A DNA stretch of 64,000 nt, from assembly GCA_963771075.1 (NCBI GenBank), contig CAVYSE010000011.1, forward strand, positions 141,508 to 205,507. Direction: 5' to 3'. A program made the position numbers and the translations under genes. Positions 1 to 57,400 of the stretch are shown one piece after another. Positions within the stretch are counted from its first letter, which is position 1. Every line of letters starts with the position of its first letter. Source of the DNA: a candidate division FCPU426 bacterium. Its GTDB lineage: Bacteria; Oederibacteriota; Muellerivitia; Muellerivitales; Muellerivitaceae. The notes under the pieces are model-generated. The model saw nothing but the letters and a program-made list of their open reading frames with translations, was not told where the DNA came from and ran no database searches.

Positions 1-1
1 A

Positions 2-4491: not shown

Positions 4492-4584
4492 AAATGCTTA
4501 ATGGAAGGTGGCATGTGTTGGATGTGTCTTTTCGGCGCCGGGACCATTAAAATTCAAAGCATCCTTGGATAATTTAAGGAAGGT

Positions 4585-5487: not shown

Positions 5488-5499
5488 GAGGAATCGAAC

Positions 5500-5805: not shown

Positions 5806-5823
5806 TATACCCAATATCCTCTC

Positions 5824-5921: not shown

Positions 5922-5940
5922 GGAAAGAATCAGGCAATAA

Positions 5941-7092: not shown

Positions 7093-7096
7093 AAAT

Positions 7097-7363
7097 TTAT
7101 TCGTAATGAGTCCACATACGGATGACTTTTACGGTTTTGATGTCCTTTAAGACCTGATAAACCAACCGGTGATGGATATTGATCCTTCGGGAATAGGCTC
7201 CTTCAAGGTCGCCAACCAATTTCTCGAAAGGAGGAGGATTCCGGTAGGGATCTTCGGCCAGGATACCCAACAGGTATTCGACTTTATCCCTTAAACCCGA
7301 CGATGAAATCTTTTTGGCATCCTTCAATGACTGCTTCGTATATAGAAGCCGCCAGTTCACCAT
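7097..7363 (-). CDS. yoeB: YoeB/Txe-family toxin (type II TA, mRNA interferase)
   Basis: 88 aa. The sequence ...GAYSRRINIHHRLVYQV... resembles the YoeB RNase fold signature. Overlaps the upstream antitoxin by a few nt. Confidence 0.8.
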   Translation of the reverse strand: MVNWRLLYTKQSLKDAKKISSSGLRDKVEYLLGILAEDPYRNPPPFEKLVGDLEGAYSRRINIHHRLVYQVLKDIKTVKVIRMWTHYE

Positions 7364-11925: not shown

Positions 11926-12388
11926 TTATTCCCTAGGCTTGGCCCAGCCAAGGTGGTTGGCCATGTGAAGGGCGGTCAAGGTGGTCCATTGCTCCTTGTT
12001 CATCTTTCCGAAGAAGGGATGTTCGGCCCAGGGTCCCTTGTGTTTTTCAAACGCGTCGAGGGTTTTTCGTAGGGCCGCCAAGGCCGTCATTTCGTCCCCT
12101 TCGATTTTTTCGGCCTTTAAGCTTTTATCCGACGAACCTACTCTCGGGGGAATAAAACCTTGGCGAAATACTTTTTTTAAACCGATGGGACCGATCAAGC
12201 GGCGCATCCACCAGGCCCCCAAGGAAGGGAAGGAAGTCATGCATGGATTGGGAACCCTTGTTGAGGTGGGTGAGGATTTGGTAATAGGACCAGTTTCCGA
12301 TCGTGACGACTGGCACTTTTTCCAGCCGGTCCAGTTCGGCCCGCGCCTCGTTCAATGTCTTGAACCTCAATTCGCGCCTCACGCCCAT
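11926..12388 (-). pseudogene. DUF1569 family paralog disrupted by a frameshift (two overlapping ORFs, 12125-12388 and 11926-12240)
   Basis: The N-terminal half (MGVRRELRFKTLNEARAELDRLEK...GNWSYYQILTHL) and the C-terminal half (...ALHMANHLGWAKP) each align to the intact neighbour at 12400-12867 but lie in different frames. The shift is near 12230-12250. Confidence 0.6.
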
Positions 12389-12399: not shown

Positions 12400-12867
12400 T
12401 TATTTAATTACGGTCGGTTCGGACTGGTTCGTCGGCCTGACCCAACCGAGGTGGTTGGCCATGTGAAAGGAATGGAACAGACACCATTTCTTCTTGTCAA
12501 AGGTGCCTAAGCGGGGGTGGTCACTGAAGGGGCCTTGGTGGTTCTCAAAGTCATCAAGAGCTTTGAGCAATTGGGTCAGGGCGGCCTTTTCATCCCCCTC
12601 CACCCGTTCGATTTTGGGCCCTTGGATCCCCGCCTGGATATAGCCTTTCAATACCGTATCCCAATAACCGATGGGCCCATAAACATGTCTTTTCCACCAT
12701 GGCATTTCCCGTCTGATTCCCTTCATGGATCCCTCGGTCGCCCTCGCCAGGTGATTCAGGATTTGAAAATATGACCAGTTGCCGAAAGTTTCCACCGGGC
12801 CCTTCTCCAGGCGGGATAGTTCGGCCCGGGCGTCATCTATATTTTTAAACCTCAATTCACGCCTCAT
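12400..12867 (-). CDS. DUF1569 family protein (DinB_2-like four-helix bundle)
   Basis: MRRELRFKNIDDARAELSRLEK...GNWSYFQILNHLA...FHMANHLGW is the DUF1569 signature. Overlaps the rsm-like gene end by 11 nt, which is operon-like. Confidence 0.7.
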   Translation of the reverse strand: MRRELRFKNIDDARAELSRLEKGPVETFGNWSYFQILNHLARATEGSMKGIRREMPWWKRHVYGPIGYWDTVLKGYIQAGIQGPKIERVEGDEKAALTQLLKALDDFENHQGPFSDHPRLGTFDKKKWCLFHSFHMANHLGWVRPTNQSEPTVIK

Positions 12868-38323: not shown

Positions 38324-38645
38324 CCACTCAAGGGATCTTCTCCACCCCCGAGTGGAGGGTTTCCTGGTAATTTTTTATCTTGCTATTTAAAGGAGAAATA
38401 CCTTTTCCACTGGTTTTGTTGAAAAAGCGTTATTCGAAAATTTGAAGAGAATTGATCCGGAATAGAACCGTTGAACAATGAGGGGTTTAAAAGAGTCGAT
38501 AAGGTTGCAGGCCATTTGTCGTGGCAATCATTTTCCTTTGGCGCATCGTTTGTCGAAGAAAATTTGGATGACCAACGTCATAGACAAAGGATTGGGTAGG
38601 CGACAAACTACCACGAATTTATTTTTTTATTTCCAGGGAGGAAAT

Positions 38646-40628
38646 ATGGCACCCGAAAAGCAATCCATCACTTCTTTGCAGAAGGATTCCGCAGTGACAT
38701 TCCCGCCTCCGGCCTCGGTGGCCTCCAAGGCATTTATCGGATCCTTCCAAAAGTACCAGGAAATGTATGACCGCTCCGTGAAGGATTCCCACAAGTTTTG
38801 GCTTGAACAAGCCACGAATGAACTGGTTTGGTTCAAGAAACCCACGAAAACACTGGAGTGGACTTGGGACACCTCCAAAAGGAAAATTCAGCATTCCTGG
38901 TTTTCGGATGGCGAGTTGAATTTATCGGTGAACTGTTTGGACCGTCACCTAGCCAAGAACGGAAATAAGATCGCTATCCTTTGGCAGGGCGAAAAGGATG
39001 AGGAAGTCCGTAAAATCACCTATTCTCAATTGCATGAGATGGTTTGTCGGTTCGCCAACGTGCTGCTTGCTAAGGGGGTCAAGAAAGGGGATCGGATCTG
39101 TGTTTATATGCCGATGATCCCCGAGGCGGCGGTGGCCTTGCTCGCTTGCGCCCGAATCGGTGCCATCCACTCCTTCGTTTTCGGCGGTTTTAGCGCGGAG
39201 GCGTTGAAAACCCGCATTCAGGATTCCCAAAATGTGTTGGCCATCACCACGGACGTGAGCTACCGATCTGGAAAAGCAATCGGATTGAAGAATATTCTTG
39301 ATGAGGCCCTCAAGGAATGCCCTACCATCAAGAACGTCATTGTCTACAAGAGGGGTGACGGAAAGGTCAACATGCAGGCCGGCCGGGACAGCTGGTGGGA
39401 TGAGGAGACCCAAAAGGCCAGTCCCAAGCATGAGGCCCAGCCGATGAACGCGGAAGACCCGCTTTTTATCCTGTATACCTCTGGATCCACTGGAAAACCG
39501 AAAGGGGTCCTTCACACGACCGGCGGTTATATCTTACACGCCGCCCTGAGCCACCGCCTCATTTTCGACTGCCATCCCGAGGACACCTATTGGTGCACTG
39601 CCGACATCGGTTGGGTCACGGGCCACAGTTACATCGTCTATGGCCCCCTGGCCAACGGCGTCACATCGATCATGTTTGAGGGAGTACCCACCTACCCAGA
39701 TTCTGGTAGGTTCTGGCAAGTGATCGCCAAACATAAAGTCACCATCTTTTATACCGCGCCCACCGCGATCCGTTCCCTGATGCGAGAAGGGGAAGAATGG
39801 CCGAAAAAGCACGACTTGAGCTCCTTGCGCATCCTGGGCTCGGTCGGTGAACCAATCAATCCCGAGGCATGGTTGTGGTATCACAGGAACATTGGCCAAA
39901 GCCGCTGTCCTATCGTCGATACCTGGTGGCAGACGGAAACGGGTGGTATTTTGATCACCCCACTTCCGGGTGCCCATACTTTAAAACCTGGGAGCGCCTC
40001 TCTTCCCTTTTTCGGGGTGGAGCCCATCGTAGTGGATAATGACGGGAAAGAATGCGCCAGAAACGAAGGCGGAAAACTGTGCATTAAGAAGCCCTGGCCG
40101 GGCATGGCCCGCACCATGTGGGGGGATCACGAACGTTTCATCGACACCTATTTCACCGCTTTCCCCAACCTTTATTACACAGGGGACGGTTGCCGCGTCG
40201 ATCAGGACGGAGATTACTGGCTCATGGGCCGGGTGGATGATGTGGTGAACATCTCTGGACACCGTATCGGGACGGCGGAAGTGGAAAGCGCGCTTGTTTC
40301 CCATCCCAAGGTTTCGGAAGCGGCGGTGGTGGGCTATCCCCACGACATCAAAGGATCGGCCCTTTACGCTTACGTGACCGTGAAGGAGGGCGTGACGCCG
40401 TCAGATGAGCTGAAGAAAGAACTGGTTCAGCATGTGCGCAAGGAAATCGGTCCCATTGCCCAACCGGACAAGATCCAGTTCGCGGAGGCGATGCCCAAGA
40501 CCCGCAGCGGCAAAATCATGCGCCGGATCTTGAGGAAAATAGCAGAGAATGAAACGGGTAATCTGGGCGATATTTCCACCCTGGCCGACCCGTCCGTCGT
40601 GGAAAGGCTGATCCAAGGAAAGCAATAA
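38646..40628 (+). CDS. acs: Acetyl-CoA synthetase (AMP-forming)
   Basis: The N-terminus ...[16 protein letters not shown]..., AMP-binding motif [11 protein letters not shown] and C-terminal ...[17 protein letters not shown] (acetylatable Lys motif) are present. RBS GGGAGG precedes ATG 38646. Confidence 0.9.
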
Positions 40629-40654
40629 ACACTATTTAGGAAGTTGTCAGAAAA

Positions 40655-40697
40655 TAAAAAAAGCAGGCTGGTTTAAAAACCAGCCTGCTTTTTTTGA
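40655..40697. terminator. Bidirectional rho-independent terminator between acs and the convergent DRTGG gene
   Basis: Perfect 11-bp stem GCAGGCTGGTT-taaaa-AACCAGCCTGC, flanked by an A-run upstream and a T-run downstream. Confidence 0.85.
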
Positions 40698-40704
40698 CTA
40701 AACC

Positions 40705-41739
40705 CTACTTGAACTTGGCCATGTCCAGATGGGACTGCACAAACTGGGTGATCATCGCGACCTTGCCCGGGTCCTGGTGGGTCAAGAGGGGTTCCAAACC
40801 GTCCAGTTGCTTGGCGGTATGGAAAGTATCGGTGGAAACCAATAAAAGCGGTATATTGCGCTGGTTGGCCAAGGAAAGCACATCCGGCGAGGGAAGGATA
40901 TTGTTCGTTAGGATCACTCCGGAGGTGCCTCCCTCCAGGGCGGCCAGGATCATATCGCTCCGGTCCCCGCTGGTAACGACCAATTTTTTATCCTTATTGA
41001 AGAGGGTAAGCCTCCTGGCGCTGTCCACGGACATGGCTCCAATAATGATGTGGCCCACCTCATTGCCCAATCCTCCTTCTCCGGCGAGGGTTTTCGAGAA
41101 AAGCACCTCGGACAGGTAGGCCATAGTGAAATGGTTCAGTTCGGGTTTCAAAGGCAAGATCCCCAGGATGGGAATACCCAACTGGTTGATCTGGGGCAAA
41201 TAGGTCGTTTTGAAATCCTCCAGGTCGTGCACCTTGTTGAGGATGACGCCCTTAAAACGAACGTCCTGGATCGGCAGGCATTTTTTGATGCAGACCAGGT
41301 CGTCCGCGATGGAACCCTCCGAACCGCTCACCACGAGGATCAACTCCCCGCCGAGGGCTTTGGCGACGGAGACGGCGTCCAGGTGCACGGACATTCCGTA
41401 ATTCAAGTGCATGCCGCCTTCCACGAAAAGTAGTTCCTTCCCGGCCCCGGCGTGGGTGGCCACCTCGCGCAGTTTTTCAGTGGTGGTCGCCGCGTCGTAT
41501 TTGTATTTCAACTTGGCGTGCTCGAAGCCGATGGAGATGTCTTCCGGGTTTTCATGAAGGTTCCAGAGGTGGGTCAGCAGGGCGGAATCGTAGTCCCAAA
41601 GGCGTTTTTTGTGATAGATCAACCGGTCGCCGAAGGGTTTCATGTAACCGGACTGTTGTCCTAGCGCGGCGGCAAGGCCGATGATCACTCCCGTTTTGCC
41701 GGAACTTTTGCTGCTTGATCCAATGACGAGTGTTTTCAT
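40705..41739 (-). CDS. Standalone BioD-like (AAA_26) plus DRTGG domain protein, homologous to the N-terminal regulatory domain of long phosphotransacetylases
   Basis: N-terminal P-loop-like MKTLVIGSSSKSSGKTGVIIGLAAAL. C-terminal DRTGG-type segment VVTSGDRSDMILAALEGGTSGVILTN. No PTA catalytic domain. The stop overlaps the start of the downstream ACD gene. Confidence 0.75.
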   Translation of the reverse strand: MKTLVIGSSSKSSGKTGVIIGLAAALGQQSGYMKPFGDRLIYHKKRLWDYDSALLTHLWNLHENPEDISIGFEHAKLKYKYDAATTTEKLREVATHAGAGKELLFVEGGMHLNYGMSVHLDAVSVAKALGGELILVVSGSEGSIADDLVCIKKCLPIQDVRFKGVILNKVHDLEDFKTTYLPQINQLGIPILGILPLKPELNHFTMAYLSEVLFSKTLAGEGGLGNEVGHIIIGAMSVDSARRLTLFNKDKKLVVTSGDRSDMILAALEGGTSGVILTNNILPSPDVLSLANQRNIPLLLVSTDTFHTAKQLDGLEPLLTHQDPGKVAMITQFVQSHLDMAKFK

Positions 41740-44340
41740 TTCTTTTGGGCCCTTTCCGAGAGCAAAACTCTCACATCCAAAGCTTTAACACCTTTTCCCT
41801 GTTCGTAAACAACCAGGGGATTGATCTCAATGTCGGAAATTTTCTCGCATTTCCGAACCAACGAACCGAGTTTGATGATGGCGTCCACGACGCCATCCAT
41901 GTCTTTTTTGTCCTCTCCCCGAACCCCAAGGAGCAGGGGATAGATCTTGGTTTCTTTGATCATGGCCAGGACATCCGATTTGGAGAAGGGAACGGACCGG
42001 AAGGAAACGTCTTTCATTACCTCGACGTAAACCCCGCCCATGCCGCACATCACGATGGGGCCGAAAGAACGGTCCCGCCGGGCACCCACGATGGTTTCCG
42101 TACCTTTTTTCACCATCTCGTTGACTTCAACGCCTTCGATCACCGCGTTGGGATTGTGTTTTCGGCAGTTAAAGAGGATGGCTTCGTAGGCATCCATCAC
42201 CTCTTGCTGGTTTTCCAGGTCCAAGGCGACGCCGCCGACGTCGCTTTTATGAAGGATATCCCGGGAAACCACCTTCATGACCACCGGGTATCCGATTTTT
42301 TCAGCCGATTTAACCGCTTCTTCCAGGGTGCGGGCAATCGAGTTTTTGGGCATGGGAACCCCGCAAAGTTCCATGATCTTCTGTCCCTCGTGGGCCAATA
42401 AAAAAGACCGGCCGTCCGCGGCCGCCTTGTCCAATACGGCATTGACCGCGTCCACCGGGATGTCGTGCTCCACGGGAAAGCCAGGGGGAGACAGGTTATG
42501 CCGGTACTGGGTCATTAAGGCCCCCAAGCAGGAAACGGCCGAATAGGTATCCTCAAAAACGGGCGCATTATCCTGCCGCAGTGAGAGAATGGCCCGCTCG
42601 GTGGGTTCGCCCCCGAAAAGAGAGAACACGATCGGCTTCCCGCCATCGCGGTAACGGACCGTATTCTCGCGGATCATGGTGGCCAGGTTGTCCACGTCAA
42701 AAACCGCCGTCTCACAATAGAGGGCAATGACAGCGTGGATGTTTTCCAGCCTCAAGGCCGCGGCCAAGGCGCCGTCGTAGTCGGAGGACCGGGCCTGACC
42801 CGTCAGGTCGATGGGATTCTTGATGGACCCAAATTCCGGAACTTCCTTGGCGAAGGCTTTTTTCATCAGTTCCACGTCGTCGTAAAGCGGGACCTGGTAT
42901 TTTTCGCAGGCGTCGGTGGCCATGACCCCGATACCGCCTCCGTTTGTGATGATGACCGTATTCTCGCCCCGGGGCGCGGAACTGGACGTGAAACTTTTGC
43001 ACCAGTTAAAGGCATCCTGGAAATTCTCAGCCCTCAAGACCCCGCATTGCTTGACAATGTTATCGAGGATCTCGTCCGAACCGGCCAGGGCGCCGGTGTG
43101 CGAGGCGGCCGCCATGGCGCCCCTTTTGGAACGTCCGGATTTGATCATGATGACGGGCTTCTTCCGGGTCACCCGGTTAATGGTGGAGATCATCCGCTCC
43201 CCGTCCTTGATGCCCTCGGTATAAAGCATGATGACCTTGGTCTGGGGATCGTCCACCAAATATTCCAAAAGATCGGCCTCGGTGATATCCGCCTTGTTGC
43301 CCACGGAAGACATGGTAGAAAGCCCGATGTGGGCCACCGCCGTCTTGCCGATCATGCCGATACCCAGCGCGCCGCTCTGGGTGATGATGGCCACGTGGCC
43401 TTTCTGGATCTGGGGTCCAAAGGTGGCGTTCAGGTCGGCGTTGGCCGAGTAGATACCGAAGATGTTGGGCCCCATGACCCGCATGCCATGATCCAGGGCG
43501 AAGGACACCAGGGCTTTTTCTTCGGCCACGTTGCCCGTCTCGGAAAAACCGGAGGTGATGACGGGCAGGAACTTGACGCCGTTGGCCGCGCATTCCTTGA
43601 CCGAATCCATGACGAACTTGGCCGGGACCGAGATGCAGGCCAGTCGATGGGCTCCTCTATCTCCGCGAAGGCTTTTCGCCATGGTCAGTCCCAAGCACCT
43701 CCCCGCCCTTGGGGTTGATGGGATACACCTTGCCCTTGATAGCCGCCGGAAAAATATTCTCCACGATCTTGTAACCCACCTTGTCGGGGCTGGCGGAAGC
43801 GCCCACCACGGCCACCGAGCGGGGCTCGAATAGGTATTTGATGTCAGGTCGATTAGGTTGTTCAACGGTTCCTCCGCGGAAGGTCATTTTCAGCTCAACC
43901 ACATTCGTGTTCGTGCGCTTCTGCAAGTCAAATCCTTGATTCTCGAAAAGATGCAGCATGGCGGTGTTTTCCTGAAGGACCTCGGCGGTGAACCCGAAGA
44001 GCCCCTGCTTCTTCGCCAACATGGTCAGGTAGGAAAGAAGCTCCGTTCCGACCCCCTTGTTATGATAATCGTCCTTCACGACGAAGGCGACTTCGGCGGA
44101 ATGCTGGTTTTCCTGGATGCCGTATTGCCCCACCCCGATGATCTCCTCCCGCCCCTGGTCCTCCGCGAAAGCCAGGATGACCATTTCCTTGCTATAGTCG
44201 ATCACGACGAATTCCTGAAGCCTTTCGTGGGGCATGTCCTTACGCACCGACATGAATCGTCGGGACATGCTCTGGTCGGACAGGGAATAGAAAAAATCCT
44301 TAAGGCCGGGTTCGTCATTGATCTTGACGGGGCGCATCAA
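41736..44340 (-). pseudogene. Pat-like protein lysine acetyltransferase (N-terminal GNAT fused to an NDP/ADP-forming acyl-CoA synthetase), reading frame broken near 43690
   Basis: ORF 43657-44340 encodes a GNAT domain (...AEVAFVVKDDYHNKGVGTELL...) followed by the start of the CoA-binding domain (RSVAVVGASASPDKVGYKIVENI...KVYPINPKGGEVLG). ORF 41736-43865 carries the remaining CoA-binding, CoA-ligase and ATP-grasp domains; its first ~55 codons are off-frame. The junction lies in a CCCCAAGGGCGGGGAGG tract. Confidence 0.65.
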
Positions 44341-45739
44341 AAGCCGCAGGCCGGATTCGGTCGTCCGGCGGGTCTCCAGGGACTCCGGGTACTCTCCGCG
44401 TTTTCCAGGGAATAAAGGCCTGGTCCTTGTAAATCAAATGGTTCTTCTTCGCTTCCTCCAGCAACCAGGGCCGGAACTTTGGGTGGGCGATAGAAATGAT
44501 GTCCATTGCCCTTTCTCGCAGGTTCTTTCCGTGAAGATAGGCGATCCCATATTCGGTCACCAGGTAATGAATGTCGCCTCGGGTAAGGGAAATACCGGCC
44601 CCTTCATGGAGGAAAGGCACAATCCTGGAAACCTGTTCGTTATCCGCAGTGGATTGCAGGGTCAGGATGGTTTTCCCTCCTGGCGCGAGCACGGCGCCCC
44701 GCATGAAATCCGCCTGGCCCCCGATTCCACTGAAAAACAAGTGGTCCAGGGATTCGGCGGTAGATTGGCCGGTCAAATCGACCGACAGGGCGCTGTTAAT
44801 GGCGGTCATATTGTGATTGCTCGCGATGATCAGTGGATTGTTGGTGTAATCAATGGGCCGGAATTCGACGGAAGGATTGTCATGGATGAATTCGTAGGTT
44901 TCCTGGGTTCCCATGCAAAAGCTGGCGATGGTCTTGCCGGGGTTAAGGTTTTTCCTGGAGTTGTCGATCACGCCTTCCTTCATCAGTGCCACGATTCCGT
45001 CCGAGAGCAGCTCGGTATGCACTCCCAAGTGCTTTTTATGCCTTAAATTAGCCAAGATGGCGTTGGGGATACTGCCGTAACCCACCTGCAGGGTATCTCC
45101 GTCCTGAACGAAACGGGCGATATATTTCCCGATACGGTTGGCGATCTCGTCGGAAACTTTCGGTTCGTACTCCAGCAGCGGCTCGTCGTGGTGGACAATG
45201 AAATCCACGTCATCGGCGTGAAGGAAGGTGTCGCCATGCACACGAGGCATATGGCTGTTCGCCTGGGCGATCACGATACGGGCGTTGGCTACCGCCGCCT
45301 TAGTGATATCGACGCTGACCCCCAGGCTCATGTAGCCATGCTGGTCCGGCATGCTGGTTTGGATCAGAGCCACATCCACTGGTACCAACTTCCGGTTGAA
45401 TAGATCGGGCACTTGGGAAAGAAACAGGGGCGAATAGTCGGCCAGACCCTGGTTGACCGCCTCCCGGGTGTTATCGCCTATGAAAAAAGAATTGTGGCGG
45501 AAGTTTTGCTTGAATTTCTTGTCGGTGTAGGGTGCGAGGCCTAAGGTCCAGACGTGGATGACTTCGGTGTCAAAAAAGGCCTTGGGATGGTCTTCGATAT
45601 ATTTGATCAGGGCCCCGACCAGGTACTGGGGTTCGCCACAGCCGGTGCCGATATAGATCCGGTCGCCGGGATGGATATGACTGAAAACCTCGTATTCAGT
45701 GGCAAATTTGGAAGGATAATTTTTTCTTAACGATTCCAT
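44315..45739 (-). CDS. Acetyl-CoA hydrolase/transferase family protein (Ach1/ScpC/Cat1-like CoA-transferase)
   Basis: N- and C-terminal AcetylCoA_hydro domains are present (GDRIYIGTGCGEP..., ...VTEYGIAYLHGKNLRERA). ATG 45739 is the probable start. The track ORF extends to 45811. Confidence 0.8.
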   Translation of the reverse strand: MESLRKNYPSKFATEYEVFSHIHPGDRIYIGTGCGEPQYLVGALIKYIEDHPKAFFDTEVIHVWTLGLAPYTDKKFKQNFRHNSFFIGDNTREAVNQGLADYSPLFLSQVPDLFNRKLVPVDVALIQTSMPDQHGYMSLGVSVDITKAAVANARIVIAQANSHMPRVHGDTFLHADDVDFIVHHDEPLLEYEPKVSDEIANRIGKYIARFVQDGDTLQVGYGSIPNAILANLRHKKHLGVHTELLSDGIVALMKEGVIDNSRKNLNPGKTIASFCMGTQETYEFIHDNPSVEFRPIDYTNNPLIIASNHNMTAINSALSVDLTGQSTAESLDHLFFSGIGGQADFMRGAVLAPGGKTILTLQSTADNEQVSRIVPFLHEGAGISLTRGDIHYLVTEYGIAYLHGKNLRERAMDIISIAHPKFRPWLLEEAKKNHLIYKDQAFIPWKTRRVPGVPGDPPDDRIRPAAFDAPRQDQ

Positions 45740-45886
45740 TTGGTTTTCATTCCATTCGCAAAACCGGGCGCTTACCGGGCTTTGGAGAACCATCCGCCGG
45801 CCAAGAATCACCGAAGAGAAAGTAGGGCCGGAGACCGCTTAACCCTTTCAAGGACGCGTTGATTATAAGTTAATGACCCTTTCATG

Positions 45887-45904
45887 CTATGACTCAAGTC
45901 ATAT
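45887..45904. promoter_or_regulatory. Palindromic motif site CTATGAC-tcaa-GTCATAT, with an overlapping degenerate copy at 45871-45888
   Basis: Lies in the divergent region between the CoA-transferase/pat operon (minus) and the deacetylase gene (plus). Confidence 0.5.
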
Positions 45905-46090
45905 CATGAAGGGGCGGGGTTAATTTTTTCCCAAAGGACGAAATTATTAACAACACTCATTTCATTATTGGATAATTGTCCGGACAAAAACAATTGAACT
46001 TGGTGAAATTACCTTAACTTGACTTAGCCAAAGGACAAAATTAACATGCATTATTATTTTCATTTTTTTTAGTTTTTTAAAAGGCCAAGA

Positions 46091-47044
46091 GTGAACGGAT
46101 CCAAGCCTTCCCTCGGAATTGTGTATGACGAGCTTTGCCTGAAGCATCTGCAGGATGCTGACCATCCCGAATCCCCTCGCCGGCTTCTCGCTATTCAAAA
46201 CGCTTTGGATCAAGCGGGACTTTTGAAACGAGCCCTGGCGATTCCATGCCGTAGAGCGACCGATGAAGAATTGAACTTGGTCCACCGGGCTGAATACATT
46301 GAAAAAGTCAAATCGATTTGCAGGAACGCCCCGGCCCAATTGGGTCCGGATGTTTTTATTTCCACCCCCGAAAGCCTGGATGCGGCGCTTCTCTCGGCGG
46401 GCGGCGGGTTTGAGGCGGTCGACGCGATCATGAACCAAAAGGTGACCCGGGTGTTCTGCAATACCCGTCCTCCAGGCCACCATGCCTTGCCCAACCAGGC
46501 CATGGGATTTTGTGTTTTCAATAATATCGCGCTCTGCGCCCGGTATGCCCAAACAAGGCATAAACTCAATAAAATCCTCATTGTCGATTGGGATGTGCAT
46601 CACGGGAACGGAACGCAGGATATTTTTTACGAGGATCCGGACGTATTTTATTTCAGCAGCCACCGGTTCCCCTTTTATCCCGGGACAGGGGCCCGTATCG
46701 AGACGGGAGAGTGGCCAGGGAAGGGCTCGACCCTGAATGTTCCATTTCCGCCGGAGTCGGGGGACGAGGAATATCTGGGGAGTTATAAAAGACTGCTATT
46801 GCCTGCGGCCCTTGAATTTAAACCGGACCTGATCCTGATCAGCTGCGGTTTTGACGCCCATGGCCGTGATCCTTTGGGGGGGATGAACCTCACCGAAAAA
46901 GCATACGCCCACTTGACCGATCTGGTGGTTGGAATCGCTAACCAAACTTGCGGAGGAAAGATCGTTTCCTTCCTCGAGGGCGGTTACGATCTGGAAGCCC
47001 TTGGGTTGTGCGCGGTGGAGCATGTTCGCCAGTTGATGGCGTGA
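46091..47044 (+). CDS. Histone deacetylase-family (class II HDAC / AcuC-like) protein deacetylase
   Basis: Motifs RPPGHHA, DWDVHHGNGTQ and the EGGY loop are present. GTG start at 46091. The overlapping minus ORF 45965-46663 is judged spurious. Confidence 0.8.
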   Translation: MNGSKPSLGIVYDELCLKHLQDADHPESPRRLLAIQNALDQAGLLKRALAIPCRRATDEELNLVHRAEYIEKVKSICRNAPAQLGPDVFISTPESLDAALLSAGGGFEAVDAIMNQKVTRVFCNTRPPGHHALPNQAMGFCVFNNIALCARYAQTRHKLNKILIVDWDVHHGNGTQDIFYEDPDVFYFSSHRFPFYPGTGARIETGEWPGKGSTLNVPFPPESGDEEYLGSYKRLLLPAALEFKPDLILISCGFDAHGRDPLGGMNLTEKAYAHLTDLVVGIANQTCGGKIVSFLEGGYDLEALGLCAVEHVRQLMA

Positions 47045-47186
47045 TTCAATTTTTGGTTTTCACTTTGCAGAAATAGAAGCGCCTTTCTCTTTTCCATGAC
47101 TGTCTCCTAAATTTCCATTTTAAATGTTTTTGTCCTCCTGTTTATTTACGCTGTGACTTTGAATGATTTATTGTCACAAATGTTTA

Positions 47187-47204
47187 ACATGACAACTGTC
47201 ATAA
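47187..47204. promoter_or_regulatory. Palindromic motif site ACATGAC-aact-GTCATAA (~120 nt upstream of the beta-barrel gene)
   Basis: Matches the 7-4-7 consensus with one flank mismatch. Confidence 0.5.
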
Positions 47205-47325
47205 TAACTTCACCCCGCTGGTCCTAAAATCGCTTCTCGTTGATTCTTTTCCCACGACAATCAATTGACCTCCCGGATTTTGTCGGTTCGCGAGAGCGAA
47301 AAAAACTTTCAAGGAGAAAGAAAAT

Positions 47326-48558
47326 ATGAAAAGGTTTTTGTTTTTTTCGATTTTGACTTCCCTGTTTCTGGCGGGATGGGGTACTAAGGTTTTCGCCCAA
47401 GCTACCGAAGTTAAGAATCAGGGAACCCCGGCGGTGACTCCTGAGGCGACGATGGCCGTACCCGCCTCTCCGGTTATAACGGTGGGTGGCTTGGTGGATG
47501 CGTACTATACCTACAACTTCACCAACTCCAGCAAAAACATGAACGGCCACGGAAACGTTGGATACAGCTATGACAACCTTAACGCCGTAGGTTTGAACAA
47601 CGTCGACGATGTTTTCTCCCTGGGCGTGGCGGAATTGATCGTGAAGATGAAGCAGGGCGACGTCAGCGGGATCGTGGCGATATGGACACAGATGGAAGCG
47701 GGCAACTCCGTTATGAACATCTTGGTGGCCAACGCGACCTACTCCCCCGGGCAATTCGCCTTCATGGCCGGCCGTTTCGGTGATTTTATGGGGAACGAGG
47801 CGTTCGATACCAACATGAACTGGAACTACAGCCATTCGCTCATGTACAACGATACCCTGCCCTTGTGGCTTCAGGGTGTTAGCGCCGCCTATATGCCTTC
47901 CGATTCCTTCAAGGTCACGGCTTACGCGACGGAAGGATGGATCAACGACCCGGGTAATATGAACGATTATGGGAAAACCTACGGGTTGGCGATTAACATC
48001 AAACCCGATGAGGTTTGGGGCGTGAAGTTGAACGGAATTGCCGGGCCGAACGAAGGGTATTACTCGAGCGTCACGAATCCGGGGGACTCCCTTTACGTGG
48101 GCGAACTCATCCTCAAGTGCACGGCGACCCAAGACTTTTCATGGGCCCTGGATGCCGAGTATGGCGGGTTGGACCCTGTGGCCGAGGATCATTTGGCCAG
48201 CTTGAGCAGTGAGACCTTCTGGGGCGCGGCCCTTTACGGCAGATACAACATCGCGGCGGACTGGAACATTGGACTTCGTCTGGAAGAATTGGAATCGAGC
48301 AATAGCTGGCTTTATAACGGCATGATTCCTTCGGTCACACCTTATGTGGAAACCCGAGAAGCCACTTTGACGCTATCCAACCAAGTCACGAAAAACCTGT
48401 TGCTCCGCCTGGAAGGCCGTTACGACATGGCCTTGACCGGCGGAACGATGGATGCGGCCGAGACCACCTCTCCCACGGGCGGGGTTTACGTTGGGCCTTA
48501 CGCGGGCGGGTCCGGCGATCAATTGACGACCACCGCCAGCGCGGTGTTGAGCTTCTAA
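47326..48558 (+). CDS. Outer-membrane beta-barrel protein (putative porin)
   Basis: Signal peptide, then alternating amphipathic beta-strands rich in Y/N/G and a C-terminal ...AVLSF ending in an aromatic residue, which is an OMP signature. Confidence 0.6.
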   Translation: MKRFLFFSILTSLFLAGWGTKVFAQATEVKNQGTPAVTPEATMAVPASPVITVGGLVDAYYTYNFTNSSKNMNGHGNVGYSYDNLNAVGLNNVDDVFSLGVAELIVKMKQGDVSGIVAIWTQMEAGNSVMNILVANATYSPGQFAFMAGRFGDFMGNEAFDTNMNWNYSHSLMYNDTLPLWLQGVSAAYMPSDSFKVTAYATEGWINDPGNMNDYGKTYGLAINIKPDEVWGVKLNGIAGPNEGYYSSVTNPGDSLYVGELILKCTATQDFSWALDAEYGGLDPVAEDHLASLSSETFWGAALYGRYNIAADWNIGLRLEELESSNSWLYNGMIPSVTPYVETREATLTLSNQVTKNLLLRLEGRYDMALTGGTMDAAETTSPTGGVYVGPYAGGSGDQLTTTASAVLSF

Positions 48559-48582
48559 TCGAGCCTTAAGGGAACATTTTTC

Positions 48583-48650
48583 CAAAGGCTGAAACCTCTA
48601 TTTGACGCCGTGTTTTAATTTCTCTGAGGTTTCAGCCTTTTATTTTTTGA
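48583..48650 (+). terminator. Candidate terminator after the beta-barrel gene (13-bp stem AGGCTGAAACCTC...GAGGTTTCAGCCT with a long loop, then a T-run)
   Basis: Perfect 13-bp inverted repeat followed by TTTTATTTTTTG. Confidence 0.45.
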
Positions 48651-48702
48651 CGGTTGATCGGATGGGCTTGTGCGTATTCATCTAATAAAGGAGGCAGGAA
48701 CA

Positions 48703-49302
48703 ATGACGACTCAAAGTGAACCCATGAAGCTTGCGGACACTACTGCTAATCCGGCACCCTTGGGCTTGTTGGGCTTCGGGATGACGACCGTGTTGTTAAA
48801 CTTCCACAACGCGGGGTTTTATGCTCTGGATTCGATGGTCTTGGCTATGGGCATTTTTTACGGCGGCTTAGCCCAGGTGATCGCAGGGGTCCAAGAATGG
48901 AAAAAGAACAACACCTTCGGCGCCACGGCCTTTACTTCCTACGGGATGTTCTGGCTGACCTTGGTGGCTCTGCTGACCCTGCCCAAGCTGACGTTCCTGG
49001 GTTGGGCTGGCCCGGATGCCAACTCCTTCTCGGTTTACCTGGCTCTCTGGGGTATCTTTACATTGGTTATGTTCGTGGGAACTTTAAAACTCAACCGCGC
49101 TCTACAGGTTGTTTTCGGATCGCTCGTTATTCTTTTCTTCATGCTTTCCGCCGGCAAGGCAATGGGAAGCGAGGATATCATCCACATCGCCGGGTATGAG
49201 GGTATATTCTGCGGGGCATCGGCGATCTATACCGGGCTGGCCCAGGTCCTCAACGAGGTTTACGGAAAAGTGGTTTGGCCGCTGGGACCCGTGAAGAAAT
49301 AG
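48703..49302 (+). CDS. satP: Succinate-acetate/proton symporter (GPR1/FUN34/YaaH family, SatP)
   Basis: Hallmark N-terminal NPAPLGLLGFGMTT and a 6-TM profile. RBS AAGGAGG lies 8 nt before ATG 48703. Confidence 0.85.
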   Translation: MTTQSEPMKLADTTANPAPLGLLGFGMTTVLLNFHNAGFYALDSMVLAMGIFYGGLAQVIAGVQEWKKNNTFGATAFTSYGMFWLTLVALLTLPKLTFLGWAGPDANSFSVYLALWGIFTLVMFVGTLKLNRALQVVFGSLVILFFMLSAGKAMGSEDIIHIAGYEGIFCGASAIYTGLAQVLNEVYGKVVWPLGPVKK

Positions 49303-49361
49303 TCGGACAAAGTTAAACGGCTATTAGGACTCATTTTAAATTATTTTAGTTTTATGTTTAT

Positions 49362-49392
49362 GAAACCCGCCCCAATGGGCGGGTTTTTTGTT
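49362..49392 (+). terminator. Rho-independent terminator after satP
   Basis: CCCGCCC-caat-GGGCGGG stem followed by TTTTTTG. Confidence 0.75.
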
Positions 49393-49597
49393 AATTACCA
49401 TGAAAAGATTATAGAAATAAGCCAAATTTCTTCTTTTTACTCTTTGGAAATCCTCTTTATTTTCATGACTGAAATCATAGAAATAACGGGCTCGATTTTT
49501 GTCGTAATCCATTATGTTTCTTCGGCCCTATACCTTGCCCTTTAGTTGGCATGTCGTTACAATTTATAAAAGGAGTTGAAAAGGGGAGGAATGCGCA

Positions 49598-50296
49598 ATG
49601 CTTCATTCACAAACATCGCCCGGCAAACAACCTAACATGGTTGGCCGCTCCTTTATTTCCTCCCTGGAAGTTTTCAAAAAGATCCCATCTTCCCACCTGC
49701 TTGAACTCGAAAAGAAAATGGTTGAGCGCAAGTATGCCAAGGGTGAATCCCTTTTCCTCGAAGGCGACCCGGCAGAATACGTCTGGTTTGTCAAGGAAGG
49801 CCATGTCAAGGCCGTTATCCATACCGCCAATGGGCGGGATTTGACCCTCTGTATGGTGGGGGCGAATAGTCTTTTCGGGACCTGCTGCTGTTTCGGAGGG
49901 GGAGAATATCCCTGTCACAGCGTGGCGGAAACTGAAACCACAGTCGTGGCCCTTCCCATGCAGGAGTTCATCAATCTTTTGGATAAATACCCGGAAGTTG
50001 GTAAGTCCATCGTTTTCCACCTTTCCAAACGCTTACGCCAGGCCAAAGATATGCAGACCTTTGACCAGGAAAGCGTGGAAAAACGGATTCTTCACCTTCT
50101 CGTGAACCTTGTGGCTGAATTCGGCAACACCATCCCCTTGACCCGGCGTGAGATCGCGGAAATGACTGGAACAACGGTGGAAACTTGTATCCGAACCTTT
50201 TCCAATCTTGAAAAGGAAGGGTTGGTTTCCAGCGCTAGGGGAAAGATTACAGTAAAAAGCGTACAAGATTTGATCGATCGGCAGGAGGAACTTTAA
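49598..50296 (+). CDS. CRP/FNR-family transcriptional regulator with a Cys cluster in the sensor domain
   Basis: cNMP-binding-like beta-roll (KGESLFLEGDPAEYVWFVKEGHVK), then the HTH REIAEMTGTTVETCIRTFSNLEKEGLV, whose recognition helix is FNR-like (E..R conserved). Unusual TCCCFGGGEYPC cysteine cluster. Confidence 0.8.
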   Translation: MLHSQTSPGKQPNMVGRSFISSLEVFKKIPSSHLLELEKKMVERKYAKGESLFLEGDPAEYVWFVKEGHVKAVIHTANGRDLTLCMVGANSLFGTCCCFGGGEYPCHSVAETETTVVALPMQEFINLLDKYPEVGKSIVFHLSKRLRQAKDMQTFDQESVEKRILHLLVNLVAEFGNTIPLTRREIAEMTGTTVETCIRTFSNLEKEGLVSSARGKITVKSVQDLIDRQEEL

Positions 50297-51972: not shown

Positions 51973-53790
51973 ATGGCGGTTGCTGTGGTAATGGATATGA
52001 ACAGCGGTGCCCTTATTGCCCATCCTAAGCCGCTCCTAGAACACTTCGCGTGGTTGCGGTATTTCCGTTTGCCTTCTTTAAATTCCAAAAACACCAAAAA
52101 GGACGCCTTGGTCAGTTTGAGGGCCCTCTTTTTATTAGTGATGCTGGTCCTGCTGTTCTTTAGCCCGAACCCGAGGTTAGGTTCAAACGAACTCGCTTTA
52201 GAAATCTATCTCGGTCTTTTTGGTTTATCGGTATTTGGAATGTTTTTTGTCAAAAAAGAATGGCTGGAACTTAAATTCACCCTTCCCGCCATTTTTTTGA
52301 TGGATACCTTTTTTATAACAATCGGGTTGTATTTGGTGGGGTTGGCCGATAGCGACCTATTTTTGGTCTTTTTCACCACTGTTTTCATCTCAGCCCTCTC
52401 CCAGGATGTGAAAAGCGTTTGCTTGGTGGCCGGTGTTTCCTGCCTGCTTTATGGTTTCCTTGAGTTCCGTGAAACGGGTAATTTTTGGATCAGCGACACG
52501 AATTTCCTGGTTCGTTTTCCTTTTTTGATCGTGGCGGCGACGATGAGCGGTTTTTTGGCCATGGATACCAAGCGCCATAAGGAAGAAACTTCCCGTCTCC
52601 AAGTCATGAACCGGTTTCTCGCGGAACAGGCGGATGTTTCCACCCTGAAACTCTTTGAGACGAACCAAAAGATGAAAAGTTTGCTCGAGTATCACCATTG
52701 TGTACTCTTCTCAATTAAGACGGGGATTATCGTGGTCCAGAAAGATGGGAGGGTGCGAACCTTTAATTCGGGGGCCCGCCAGATCACGGGATGCGTTGAG
52801 GCCGAAATGGCCGATATTTGTCTGGACCAATTTCCTGAGAATTTGAAGCCGGTTTCCCGAGCCCTTCAAAGAACCTTGATCGAAGAAAAGTCGTTTGTCA
52901 TGGAAAACCTGGATCTCAAAAGTACCCGGTCCGAAATCGTGCCCGTGAACCTGGAGACCTCGCTTCTGCGGGATGGGACGGGTCAAATTATAGGCGCCAT
53001 CGCGACCCTCAAGGATATATCCCTTCTGAACCAACTGGAAAGGCAGTTGGTTCGAAGCGAACGGTTTTCGGCATTGGGTGAGATGGCGGCGGGCATGGCC
53101 CATGAGATCAAAAACCCCCTTAATTCAGTCCAGGGTTTTTCAAAACGCCTCTCCGCCAAGATCTCCGATCCCAGTCTGAAGAAATACGCGGATATCATCG
53201 CGGAAGAAGTGGGCCGGATGGACAACATCGTAAACGAAATATTGGATTTCAGCCGCACCGATACGCTTCACCGATCCTGGGTGGATTTACATCAGATGAT
53301 GCGCGAAACGGTGGCGTTTTTAGGGGAAAAAATCGAAAAGGCCAATGTGGTCGTCAAAGAGGAATTTCTTCAAGACCTACCCCAGGTGGAAGCGGACCTG
53401 CCCAAAATCAGGCAAGTGGTCTTGAATTTGATCCTGAACGCCGTTCAAGCCATGCCCCAAGGCGGAACCCTGACCTTAAAAACGAAATTTTTGGATGGGT
53501 TCATTCCCAAAGGCGAGGTGAAAGTGAGTAAAGATTTGGCTTATCAACAGTTGTTTTTACAGGAAAAAATGGTGGTTCTAACGGTCCAAGACACGGGTTG
53601 CGGCATACCCGCTGAGAATTTAGCCAAAGTTTTCCAACCCTTTTTTACCACCAAGATCACGGGTACCGGATTGGGATTGAGCGTGTGCCATAAGCTTGTC
53701 GCGGCGCATGGAGGGACGTTGGACGTAGAAAGCACGGTAGGGGTGGGGACGTCGTTTTCAATTTATTTGCCGGTTCATCAGGAGGAGTAA
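51973..53790 (+). CDS. Sensor histidine kinase with multi-TM N-terminus, PAS domain, HisKA and HATPase_c
   Basis: About 6 TM helices. H-box HEIKNPLNSV, N-box LNLILNAVQAM and G-boxes DTGCGI, GTGLGLSVCHKLV are present. Confidence 0.8.
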   Translation: MAVAVVMDMNSGALIAHPKPLLEHFAWLRYFRLPSLNSKNTKKDALVSLRALFLLVMLVLLFFSPNPRLGSNELALEIYLGLFGLSVFGMFFVKKEWLELKFTLPAIFLMDTFFITIGLYLVGLADSDLFLVFFTTVFISALSQDVKSVCLVAGVSCLLYGFLEFRETGNFWISDTNFLVRFPFLIVAATMSGFLAMDTKRHKEETSRLQVMNRFLAEQADVSTLKLFETNQKMKSLLEYHHCVLFSIKTGIIVVQKDGRVRTFNSGARQITGCVEAEMADICLDQFPENLKPVSRALQRTLIEEKSFVMENLDLKSTRSEIVPVNLETSLLRDGTGQIIGAIATLKDISLLNQLERQLVRSERFSALGEMAAGMAHEIKNPLNSVQGFSKRLSAKISDPSLKKYADIIAEEVGRMDNIVNEILDFSRTDTLHRSWVDLHQMMRETVAFLGEKIEKANVVVKEEFLQDLPQVEADLPKIRQVVLNLILNAVQAMPQGGTLTLKTKFLDGFIPKGEVKVSKDLAYQQLFLQEKMVVLTVQDTGCGIPAENLAKVFQPFFTTKITGTGLGLSVCHKLVAAHGGTLDVESTVGVGTSFSIYLPVHQEE

Positions 53791-53793
53791 GCC

Positions 53794-54186
53794 ATGGATA
53801 AAAGACAAATATCAATATTGGTGGCCGAGGATGAAGACAACGCCCGTTTGCTTTATTTTGACGAACTCTCGGATGAGGGATACCGCGTCTACCCCGCCAT
53901 GAATGGCCTTCAAGCCTTGGGCCTGCTGGAAGATAACAAGATCGATTTGGTCGTCACCGATATCAAAATGCCGGACATGCATGCCTTGGAGATGATCCCC
54001 TGGATCCGGGCTGAATACCCCGGATTGCCGGTCATCGTGGTTTCGGCTTTCAAGGGCATGGAAAATGACTTCAATTTGAAAGAAAATTTCATCGATGGCT
54101 TTTTCGCAAAACCAGTGAATATGGAAGCGCTGAAAAGGAAAATAGAAGAAATCTTGACCAGCCGTTTGGCGCACCATGCCGCGTAA
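53794..54186 (+). CDS. Single-domain response regulator (CheY-like receiver)
   Basis: The sequence ILVAEDEDNARL...DLVVTDIKMPDM...VIVVSAF contains the phospho-acceptor Asp. RBS GGAGGAG precedes the start, 4 nt after the kinase stop. Confidence 0.8.
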   Translation: MDKRQISILVAEDEDNARLLYFDELSDEGYRVYPAMNGLQALGLLEDNKIDLVVTDIKMPDMHALEMIPWIRAEYPGLPVIVVSAFKGMENDFNLKENFIDGFFAKPVNMEALKRKIEEILTSRLAHHAA

Positions 54187-54467: not shown

Positions 54468-57400
54468 ATGAAACCCGTCCCTGGCGACTCCAACCCAGAT
54501 TCCGAAGAGAAACGATTGCTTCTCATTTGCCATGAGGATCTAATCGCCTCGCGTATCCTTAAAATCCTTGAAAAGATTTCTGTGGAGCCATACGCCGTTG
54601 AGCGAGCGATGATTTTCGGACAGGTTTTCAAGGCGGTGGCAAACCCAAGTTTCCACATTTGTTTGATCGTGGAAAGCACCGACCCGAATCAAGCCCTTAG
54701 TTTTTTGCATACCTCCCTGTTGAAACAACGCGACATTCCAATAATCCTCCTGAGCCATATGGACCCGGACGCGGGGACGGTGGAAGCGTTCCGACTCGGG
54801 GCCGCCGATTTCATTTCGTTGAATCAATTAGACGCGACGGTTTTGGAGCGCTCCCTCCGCTACGCCCTCGAACGCAAAAGGGCGAGAGATGCCGTCCGTG
54901 AGAGTGAGGATTTTTTTCGCGTCGTCATCGAGAATAATCAAGACGGCATCTCGGTCATCGACCCGAATGGAAAAGTCCGCTATACCAGTTCTTCCTTGTC
55001 GAGGATATTGGGTTATAGCCCCGAGGAAAGGATCGGTAAATATACGTTCGATGTTTTGCACCCCGATGACATGAATTGGATCCAAGAAGCGTTCAAGGGG
55101 TTGTTGCAAAATCCGGGAAGTGTTCAAAAGGGACAAGTTCGCGCGCGACACAAAGACGGCGCTTGGCGTTATTTGGACTTGGCCGCGAAAAGCCATTATT
55201 TTTCCCAGTATTCCTCCCTCGCCGTGGTTTTGAATTACCGGGATGTGACCGACCGGGTCAAAGCCCAACAGGTCACGGAACGGCTGGCCTCTATTGTCGA
55301 TTCCTCCCATGACGCCATTTATACCCTTTCCCGGGAAGGCGTCATATTCAGCTGGAATCCGAGGGCCCGGGAAATCTATGGATTTCCGCCCGAGGAAATC
55401 AGCGGCCGGCATTTTTCGCTCATCATGGATCAGGATGAAAGCAACCGTTTTCAAACAACGCTGGAAGAAGTTTTTGAAGGCCGGGGACCGAATTCTTTTC
55501 AAACAACCCACCGCTCAAAGGTCGGGAAACTCATTTCTGTTTCCTTGGTCCTTTCCCCGATTAGGGATTCCAAGGGACAAATTAACCGGGTTTCAGTTAT
55601 CGCACGGGATATTTCACCCGAATACAAGTTAATGGAAATCGGGAAACGGCTTTCCAGCCTTCTCGAGAACGCGCCCACCGCCATTTACAGCGGGGACAAA
55701 GAAGGCGTTATCACGATGTGGAGCCGGGGAGCGGAGAAAATATTCGGTTATAAAGCGGAGGAAATGATCGGCCAAAAAACCGATATTTTGGAAGTGCCCG
55801 AAAATCCGGGCGAGATTGCGAAGTTACGAAAAGAAGTGAACGATGGAAAGGCTCATATCCATTATGAGACCGTACGCCGTCGTAAAGACGGAAGCCGGGT
55901 CAACATGATATTCCAGATATTCCCGGCTTTGGATGCCAATGGAAAAAATGTCGGAGTAACCGCGATTGGGGAGGACGTTACTTCCCGAATGATAGCGGAA
56001 CGGGCTTTAAATGAAAGCGAGGCCCGTCTTCGTGATATTTTTGAAAAGAGCCCCTTGGGAATGGCCTTGACGACCACCAGCGGTCTATTGAGGATCGTCA
56101 ACCCGAAGTTTTGCCAGATGCTTGGATATGAACCTTCCGAATTGATCGATCGGCCCATTATGGAGATCAGTTACCCCCAAGACCTGCCGAGAGAAGTGGA
56201 GGGGATGAGAAATTTAATCCAAGGAAAAATCGGTTACTTGGAATTGGATAAAAGATACCTCCATAAAAGGGGGCATTGGATATGGACCCATCTGGTCGCT
56301 TCCATGTTAACCCCCGAAAAAAGCGAGGATAACCTGGTATTGGGAATGGTGGAGGATATCACGGACCGGGTCTTCGCGAAGAGGGCTTTGGAGGAAAGCG
56401 AGGCCCGATTCAAGCAGATATTTCATGAAAGCCCCATTGGTATGGGTTTGGTGCGGCAGGACGGCATCGTTTTGATGATCAATCCGAAGTTCTGCCAGCT
56501 TCTGGGATATAACGAGTCCGAATTGATCGGCCGAAATTATTTTGAGTTCATTTCGCCGGACGAACTAAAAGAAGCCAAGGATAACCTGGCGGCCATGTAC
56601 CGGGGAGACCGGCATTCCTATTCGGTTGAACGGCGGTACCGCCGCAGGGATGGCCAATGGTTTTGGGGCCATATGGAAGTGACCAGGATGAAAACAGCCG
56701 AAGGCGCCCCGCTTTTGGCTTTCGGAATGTTGGAAGACATCAGCGAACGCAAGAAATCGCAGGAAACAAGGGAGTTCCTGGTCAATGTACTCGAAAACAC
56801 CGGGGAAGCCGTCATCACCGCCGACTTGAACGGGACCTTGCTTAGCTGGAACAAGGCAGCGGAAACCCTTTACGGATTCACGGCGGCGGAGGCGATAGGC
56901 AAAAAAGCCCGGGATCTCATGCCGGAAGGAAAAGCGCGGGAAATTCAAGCGTTAATGGATCGGTTCATTCAGGGGGAGAAAATTAAGAACCATGAAATGA
57001 TCCGCTTAAAGAATAACGGGGAGCCTTTTTACGCCTCCATCACCTTTTCATTGTTAAAGGACGAAAGGGGCGCCAAAAAGGGCATTACCATGGTCATCCG
57101 GGACGTCAGTGAAATGAAAAAGGCCCGTAAGTCCCAAGACCGATTGGCGAACATCCTTGAACATTCCTATGACGCCATCCTTGGCATCGATATGGAAGGC
57201 GTGATCACCCATTGGAATATAGGCGCCGAGACAATGTTCGGATACACCGCCTCGGAAGCGCACGGCCAAAACATCCAATTGCTGGTCCCGGAGGAATATC
57301 GGTCGGAAACACGTTATTTGATGGAAAAAGCGGTCAAGGGGGAGTCGGTCGGAAATTTCGAGACCGTGCGGAGAAGAAAAAACGGTTCCCTGATCGACGT

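Follow-up and report, generated by a model that had tools for sequence, protein, structure and literature searches.

An apparent frameshifted Pat-like gene corresponds to two overlapping genes in near-identical relatives and carries five indels in and just upstream of a divergent allele tract

A locus that an earlier note had described as one Pat-like gene split by a frameshift is natively two overlapping genes, one for an acetyl-CoA hydrolase/transferase fused to a GNAT domain and one for a separate protein of the ADP-forming acyl-CoA synthetase type (ACD). In the window, by which we mean the whole stretch of 64,000 nt that was analysed, this locus is interrupted by five indels of 1-2 nt, four of them at the 5' end of a tract in which the ACD gene diverges from its closest relatives. 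We consider a local consensus or assembly error in a strain-variable region to be the probable cause of these indels (probability of roughly 0.6). A real inactivation of the locus in this strain is a less probable explanation, and a Pat-like fusion or programmed frameshifting would be far less probable still.

Reading frames of the locus in the window

As it stands in the window, the locus is spread over several reading frames, and its parts are the following.

44315..45739, minus strand, acetyl-CoA hydrolase/transferase part of the first gene (PF02550 and PF13336, Pfam)
43854..44410, minus strand, linker and putative Pat-type GNAT domain of the first gene, with the native reading PGKRGEYPESLETRR...MRPVKINDEP...FRGGTVE
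43657..44340, minus strand, GNAT open reading frame (ORF) of 227 aa (GNAT PF00583, E 9e-13, Pfam)
43863..43865, minus strand, TTG start codon of the ACD, preceded at a distance of 5 nt by GGAGGA (43871-43876), the same in the window and in the relative L038
41736..43865, minus strand, ACD gene and ORF, reading through 709 codons from its native TTG (ORF and Pfam analysis)
40705..41739, minus strand, gene of an AAA_26 and DRTGG protein that is like the N-terminal region of Pta, with a 4-nt overlap with the ACD stop, intact and identical in five other contigs

The hydrolase/transferase part keeps its native frame to about 44412 and is then followed by 32 out-of-frame codons up to a stop at 44315, and the ORF that contains it (44315..45811) also switches frame just ahead of the GNAT domain. 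The GNAT ORF runs in frame into positions 1-44 of the CoA_binding_2 profile (...FEPRSVAVVGAS...KVYPINPKGGEVLG) and stops at 43657-59, 13 codons past this segment. The remainder of CoA_binding_2 is located in the ORF 41736..43865, followed by Succ_CoA_lig, Ligase_CoA_2 and ATP-grasp_5, so that this domain of the window ACD is divided between two ORFs. These ORF and Pfam results bear out what the earlier note had read, namely a GNAT ORF that enters the CoA-binding domain and then stops, and an ACD that resumes as ...CLGLTMAKSL...ISVPAKFV in another frame.

Three-frame translation of the window locus already made more than one shift visible, since the motif EIEEPID falls in the third frame, between ...LGLTMAKSL and LACISVPAKFV. 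Codons ~2-56 and 68-75 of the window ACD ORF are out of frame. A clean 709-aa ACD is recovered by four single-base edits whose net effect on length is 0, and 678 of its 709 residues are identical to the intact protein P0088.

Near-identical relatives carry two intact genes

Comparison loci were recruited through the AAA_26-DRTGG protein of 40705..41739, which is identical residue for residue on five contigs of other assemblies; these contigs are 98.1-99.9% identical to the window (BLASTN, MAFFT). The loci L038 (Logan ERR10755947), L039 (NCBI GCA_052915985.1) and L040 (ENA ERZ25039528) are 98.1-99.4% identical to the window over 7-11 kb, and all three are without the five indels. Two intact separate genes, with products of 627 aa and 708 aa, are present at the locus in both L038 and L039, and the 627-aa hydrolase/transferase-GNAT protein (P0091) is intact in L040 as well. 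The first gene terminates in the relatives at a TAA equivalent to window positions ~43854-56. The ACD gene of L038 and L039 has its own TTG start, with a GGAGGA Shine-Dalgarno (SD) sequence 5 nt before it, and, read in another frame, shares 11 nt with the end of the first gene. The native locus is two overlapping genes, a hydrolase/transferase-GNAT fusion and a separate ACD, and of the fusions considered only hydrolase-GNAT is native. A hydrolase-GNAT-ACD triple fusion was also considered as the ancestral state and was ruled out by the stop and the separate start in L038 and L039.

More distant sequences were compared for both genes. The distant ACD orthologues L001 and L002 (59% identity) are stand-alone genes of 716 aa with no GNAT upstream and with the same AAA_26-DRTGG gene downstream of them; a scan of genome contigs found no conspecific genome, its best match having 59% identity. 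[quoted passage not shown] The family is labelled 'acyl-CoA hydrolase/GNAT superfamily N-acetyltransferase' in the source records and has many uncharacterised members.

Around the intact locus we observed a set of genes that all belong to known families: the hydrolase/transferase-GNAT, the catalytic ACD, the AAA_26-DRTGG protein, an AcuC-like deacetylase, Acs and an acetate channel. A survey of the window for further broken genes found a DUF1569 paralogue only, which is split by a T insertion at 12243 and intact in L043; domain matches were full-length in the remaining genes of the survey.

Five indels within 770 nt

Alignment of the window with L038, L039 and L040 (MAFFT) identified five indel events in 770 nt and a divergent tract.

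Indel 1, 44411..44412, minus strand, extra T (ATT CCC TGG against ATC CCT GG in the relatives)
Indel 2, 43857..43860, minus strand, at the junction of the two genes, window GTTGAACAACCTAATCG against GTTGAGCCCTAATCG in L038, with ACAA for GC
Indel 3, 43694..43699 (~43696), minus strand, one additional base, GAGGTGCTTGGG against GAGGTCTTGGG, within GTGCTTGGG
Indel 4, 43660..43668, minus strand, one additional base somewhere in CTTCGCGGAGATAG
Indel 5, 43643..43644, minus strand, one base lost, ATCGA/CTGG against ATCGATCTGG
Divergent tract, 43367..43862, minus strand, ~500 nt with a divergent allele, in the CoA-binding domain of the ACD

Indel 1 cuts the hydrolase/transferase domain from its GNAT domain, at a point that the homologues P0002-P0004 read through as ...AFIPGK(K/R)GEYPE(S/E)LET... 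(AFIPGKKGEYPEELET). Indel 2 can be parsed as +2, or as one additional codon plus the loss of one C. It puts the GNAT stop out of frame, so that the GNAT ORF continues into the native frame of the ACD and the window acquires its apparent GNAT-first, PatA-like fusion. Indel 3 is the frame change that had been noticed earlier, and it puts the TTG-initiated ORF back in the native ACD frame. Past indel 4 the native reading (A)EIEEPID falls in the third frame; indels 4 and 5 are mutually compensating and leave 8 residues scrambled. The four ACD indels can be parsed as -1, +1, +1 and -1, with a net change of 0, and compensate in pairs.

The single frameshift in a homopolymer-rich tract that had been proposed for 43600-43760 is not what the alignment contains: three indels are located there (~43696, 43660-43668 and 43643/43644) and two more upstream (43857-43860 and 44412), and their contexts (GGTGCTTGG, CTTCGCGGAGATAG, CGA/CTGG, AACAACCT and TATTCCC) are not homopolymer-rich. 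None of the five lies in a long homopolymer, and several consist of an inserted base unlike its neighbours. A first in-silico repair, in which two 1-nt deletions gave ...GGEVLGTDHGEKAFAEIEEPIDLACI, was dropped, as the alignment with L038 contains three indels there and the native reading is GGEVLGLTMAKSL(A)EIEEPIDLACI.

Such a density of indels is exceptional in the window. Elsewhere, one indel was found in the ~24 kb of window compared, against which five in 770 nt have a Poisson P of ~3e-10, and in the remaining 13.7 kb there is no further indel between the window and L038 or L039.

A divergent allele tract in the 5' end of the ACD gene

Four of the five indels lie within the first 220 nt of the tract, at its 5' end. 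The tract carries ~70 substitutions (~12%) relative to L038, L039 and L040, and its flanks are essentially identical to theirs. Outside it, the two genes (~3.3 kb) differ from the relatives by ~5 substitutions and contain no nonsense codon. The codon differences of the tract in the native frame comprise 32 synonymous and 29 nonsynonymous changes, the latter mostly conservative. The tract thus has the appearance of a functional alternative allele under purifying selection, and this pattern suggests that the allele evolved as a working gene and that the indels are far more recent than its divergence.

We considered whether the tract could derive from a paralogue within the window, through gene conversion or misassembly, and ruled this out, as the window has no second copy. 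No other copy of the tract allele, intact or broken, was found by protein and exact-DNA searches. With the repaired N-terminus as query, the best protein match had 65% identity; this is a weak negative, since the search also missed a known cluster of 88-100% identity. Exact-DNA scans of JGI metagenomes returned 0 matches, and the organism is thus absent from that collection.

The broken form is recorded from one contig only. Its frameshift product P0089 (MAKSLRGDRG..., 648 aa) is on record from this contig of 548,928 bp, and a look-up of shift-specific products in other assemblies found none, as was also the case for two other window proteins. The intact proteins are on record from several sources, one form from NCBI and Logan and the other from NCBI, Logan and ENA.

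Assembly error or real inactivation

Over its first ~500 nt the ACD gene of this contig has a divergent but functional-looking allele, which would come from a coexisting strain or from a recombination tract. According to the assembly-error explanation, which we favour, the five indels in this tract and just ahead of it would be consensus or polishing errors of the long contig. The organism would then make the normal two proteins, with neither frameshifting nor a Pat-like fusion.

Several observations argue for such an error. The broken form is on one contig, and L038, L039 and L040 are without the indels; the indels coincide with the strain-variable tract; and their net-zero compensation in pairs is expected when identical flanks anchor the consensus. 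They also lie outside homopolymer runs, and mononucleotide runs are where most genuine 1-nt indels arise. The few substitutions outside the tract give no sign of prolonged decay. An analogous case was observed in L040, where a separate divergent tract, located in acs, is bordered by an indel, and the isolated insertion at 12243, in a DUF1569 gene that is intact in L043, points the same way. On the other side, the window is otherwise very accurate, with positions 1-7253 being 100% identical to L045 (7,253 nt); a generally error-prone assembly is thus not the cause, and a special local cause must be assumed. Two broken loci in ~55 genes are a normal pseudogene load for a wild bacterium, an undamaged version of the divergent allele was not found in any other sequence searched, and neither indel 1 (44412) nor the DUF1569 insertion is located in a divergent tract.

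These last points bear on the main alternative, a real strain-specific inactivation, which we regard as possible though somewhat doubtful. An allele of the CoA-binding domain would have been gained by recombination and five small indels would have followed, leaving the ACD dead in this strain, with the GNAT domain uncoupled from the hydrolase/transferase and the ACD N-terminus, including the CoA-binding Rossmann motif, scrambled. The indels are present in the deposited sequence, and both the accuracy of the rest of the window and the ordinary frequency of pseudogenes are in keeping with such an event. The pairwise compensation keeps the 709-codon ORF open (the stop-free out-of-frame run of 56 codons alone has a chance of ~0.19), and the open ORF could reflect selection for translation into the DRTGG gene that overlaps it by 4 nt. 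However, with 55 residues of the CoA-binding fold still scrambled, such compensation would not bring function back, and selection for it is hard to justify. Inactivation also has to accommodate five indels in 770 nt beside ~5 substitutions and no nonsense codon in the other ~3.3 kb, indels that are not in mononucleotide runs, and a broken form confined to one contig. The earlier caution that the split might be an assembly error or a genuine inactivation was well placed, given the uninterrupted genes in three other assemblies and the single contig with the broken product.

Identity of the ACD and the Pat/PatA-like reading

The complete domain series CoA_binding, Succ_CoA_lig, Ligase_CoA_2 and ATP-grasp_5 is present in the ACD (Pfam). 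Its best PDB match is 8wzu, a fused single-chain 4-hydroxybutyrate-CoA ligase [ADP-forming], which aligns end to end with E 4e-142; other solved relatives are the 3-hydroxypropionate-CoA ligase 9y43 and ckcACD1 (4xyl), and the ADP-forming ligases score E 4e-142 and 1e-117 against E 1e-77 for PatZ. The catalytic phosphohistidine is kept in the window and in P0088 as AAASHTGALAGS (SHTG motif), aligned to AAASHTGSIAGS of 4xyl_A. In PatZ the catalytic His of the ACD1 alpha subunit is replaced by Leu, L245 (PMC12184503). Judged from these motifs and matches, the ACD is a catalytically competent ADP-forming acyl-CoA synthetase, a real enzyme type rather than a Pat. As regards a defined substrate (acetate, 4-hydroxybutyrate or 3-hydroxypropionate), NCBIfam equivalog models scored 483-564 bits, far short of their cutoffs of 1200-1300.

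The locus had been taken for one Pat/PatA-like gene with the GNAT domain first, an ACD-like regulatory domain second and one +1/-1 homopolymer frameshift between them. The GNAT ORF of the window does run in frame into the CoA-binding domain, and natural fusions of GNAT and ACD exist, such as P0030 and P0083-P0087 in the ACD-GNAT order. Nevertheless, the 99%-identical relatives have a GNAT that ends in TAA and an ACD with its own SD and TTG in another frame, and the in-frame join results from the indel at 43857-60. The GNAT domain is part of a hydrolase/transferase-GNAT fusion conserved in many homologues, the distant ACD orthologues L001 and L002 stand alone, and the catalytic His is present, unlike in PatZ (PMC12184503). 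There are five indels rather than one, and none is in a homopolymer run. The gene arrangement of L038 and L039 refutes the Pat/PatA-like fusion, and we give this reading hardly any credence.

Programmed frameshifting

Programmed +1 frameshifting at GGGGAGG-UG-CUU-G (43705-43693) would join the GNAT ORF to the body of the ACD in a fusion like Pat type II. The site has an SD-like GGGGAGG 2 nt upstream of CUU G, the change needed is +1, and the arrangement is superficially reminiscent of the prfB site. Among the features of a prfB-like site (slippery CUU-U, a stop or slow codon, an SD-like element and a conserved shift), the SD-like string alone is present. The A site has neither an in-frame stop nor a hungry codon, and re-pairing from CUU to UUG would be poor. 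The SD-like string just encodes the conserved KGGEV and is in frame in the intact alleles too. The shift is missing from all relatives. Several shifts would also be needed. Even after this one, 8 residues would stay scrambled by the two indels located 36-52 nt further downstream, which it leaves uncorrected. No Rfam match was found at the shift site, and the downstream RNA fold was no better than that of shuffled sequence (z -0.66). Programmed frameshifting, which had been raised earlier as an option, is very unlikely and finds no support in the relatives, in Rfam or in RNA folding.

A combination of real indels, the junction fusion and a +1 shift at GGGGAGG-UG-CUU-G would yield a newborn Pat type II-like GNAT-ACD protein whose synthetase domain retains catalysis. 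Such a protein would capture the origin of Pat-type acetyltransferases from a neighbouring GNAT/ACD gene pair, but we consider this combination extremely improbable.

Implications

The locus is mainly a caution, as an apparent frameshifted Pat-like regulator vanishes on comparison with near-identical contigs. To annotate it as a fusion of the PatA type, as programmed frameshifting or as the loss of a regulator would be either incorrect or unproven. The case further illustrates that frame-breaking indels in metagenome contigs cluster where the alleles of coexisting strains diverge. Biologically, interest in the intact locus itself is modest.

Comparison with known systems

The window locus resembles indel errors known from contigs of mixed-strain metagenomes: ORFs that other assemblies of the same population have intact are broken by isolated 1-nt indels, and these are concentrated where alleles differ. 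L040 provides a second example. The window indels are not, however, homopolymer errors of the type seen in L040, such as its change from G7 to G6 at 43705.

The ACD shares its domain series and phosphohistidine motif with ckcACD1 (4xyl) and 8wzu. It differs from them in being paired with an AAA_26-DRTGG gene and, in the window copy, in the 75 N-terminal codons that are scrambled by four indels. In many members of the hydrolase/transferase-GNAT family the protein also includes Hist_deacetyl, 4Fe-4S or receiver domains; at this locus, by contrast, the deacetylase has a gene of its own in the neighbourhood.

Type I and type II class I-alpha lysine acetyltransferases (KATs) combine a GNAT domain and an NDP-forming synthetase domain in one chain (PMC6456759). 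GNAT and ACD are on separate polypeptides in the intact L038 and L039, and the ACD retains the His that would be expected to be lost from a non-catalytic ACD-like domain of the Pat/PatA kind. The mycobacterial Pat model NF058543 matched residues 461-614 of P0091 with E 8e-21 and 74 bits, against a cutoff of 460, and generic GNAT Pfam models passed their thresholds. The locus is like Pat/PatZ/YfiQ and the Streptomyces lividans PatA in that a putative Pat-type GNAT domain adjoins a module of ACD fold, in an acetate-metabolism setting with an AMP-forming Acs and a deacetylase homologue. It differs from them in that the two are encoded by separate genes and that the partner of the GNAT domain is an acetyl-CoA hydrolase/transferase instead of an ACD-like domain.

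The acetate/acetylation island

The genes for acetate metabolism and acetylation in the window were observed to be clustered as an island at 38478-50296, which comprises:

38478-40628, + strand: AMP-forming Acs
40705-41739, - strand: AAA_26-DRTGG gene
41736-43865, - strand: ADP-forming acyl-CoA synthetase gene (ACD)
43854-45739, - strand (6005-7888 in L038, a near-identical contig): hydrolase/transferase-GNAT fusion, natively PF02550 and PF13336 with a C-terminal Pat-type GNAT
46091-47044, + strand: Hist_deacetyl/AcuC-like gene
47326-48558, + strand: BBP2 porin
about 48703-49302, + strand: Gpr1/Fun34/YaaH acetate channel
49598-50296, + strand: Crp-type regulator

Divergent tracts in ACD and acs

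The divergent tract of the window (43367-43862) was found to run from codon 2 to about codon 166 of ACD, close to where the CoA_binding_2 match stops, and Succ_CoA_lig starts from about residue 155. These limits suggest domain-sized allelic exchange within the population. The Logan contig L041 terminates at 43105, near the tract boundary. A separate divergent tract was located in acs of contig L040 (ENA ERZ25039528), with about 50 substitutions over about 420 nt (window-equivalent 40150-40570), many of which lay at intervals that are multiples of 3 nt. L040 also had indels (window-equivalent positions 40145, 43705 and 39086), one at the edge of the acs tract and homopolymer-type ones elsewhere, and the gene calls of both ACD and acs were fragmented.

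Other genes in the window

Outside the fusion/ACD locus, another gene of the window, the first of the two DUF1569 paralogues below, is also frameshifted:

11926-12388, - strand: DUF1569 paralogue, frameshifted by an insertion at 12243
12400-12867: second DUF1569 paralogue, adjoining and intact
10087-11757, - strand: Thr/Pro-rich ORF, 556 aa, with a long repeat region (TPTPT...TLTPTITL...)
51973-54186, + strand: PAS histidine kinase
54468-59018, + strand: adjoining hybrid histidine kinase, 1516 aa, with about eight PAS domains and a receiver domain

One extra T (CCAATCCA[T]GCATGAC) splits the frameshifted paralogue into two ORFs covering Pfam profile positions 4-47 and 47-150, and contig L043 (ENA ERZ19046170) carries an unbroken 153-aa version. 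A Pfam search of the Thr/Pro-rich ORF gave zero matches. A single-domain response regulator also adjoins the hybrid kinase, and all three appear intact.

Domain architectures of the fusion and of the ACD pair

Homologues of the hydrolase/transferase-GNAT fusion were numerous, and a further domain (Hist_deacetyl, 4Fe-4S or receiver) was often present in them. For lysine acetyltransferases of bacteria, PMC6456759 lists ACT, cAMP and NADP+ as regulatory domains, and a CoA-transferase-fold partner is absent from that list. The fusion may represent an unstudied acetyl-CoA-sensing KAT architecture.

The AAA_26-DRTGG gene lies directly 3' of ACD with a 4-nt overlap (pair at 40705-43865, - strand), and the pair is also kept in the 59%-identical relatives L001 and L002 (Neomarinimicrobiota MAG). 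In a 1316-aa Poribacteria protein (P0001), the two are apparently joined, with no GNAT and with the CoA-binding domain missing its first half. The AAA_26-DRTGG product resembles the N-terminal region of Pta.
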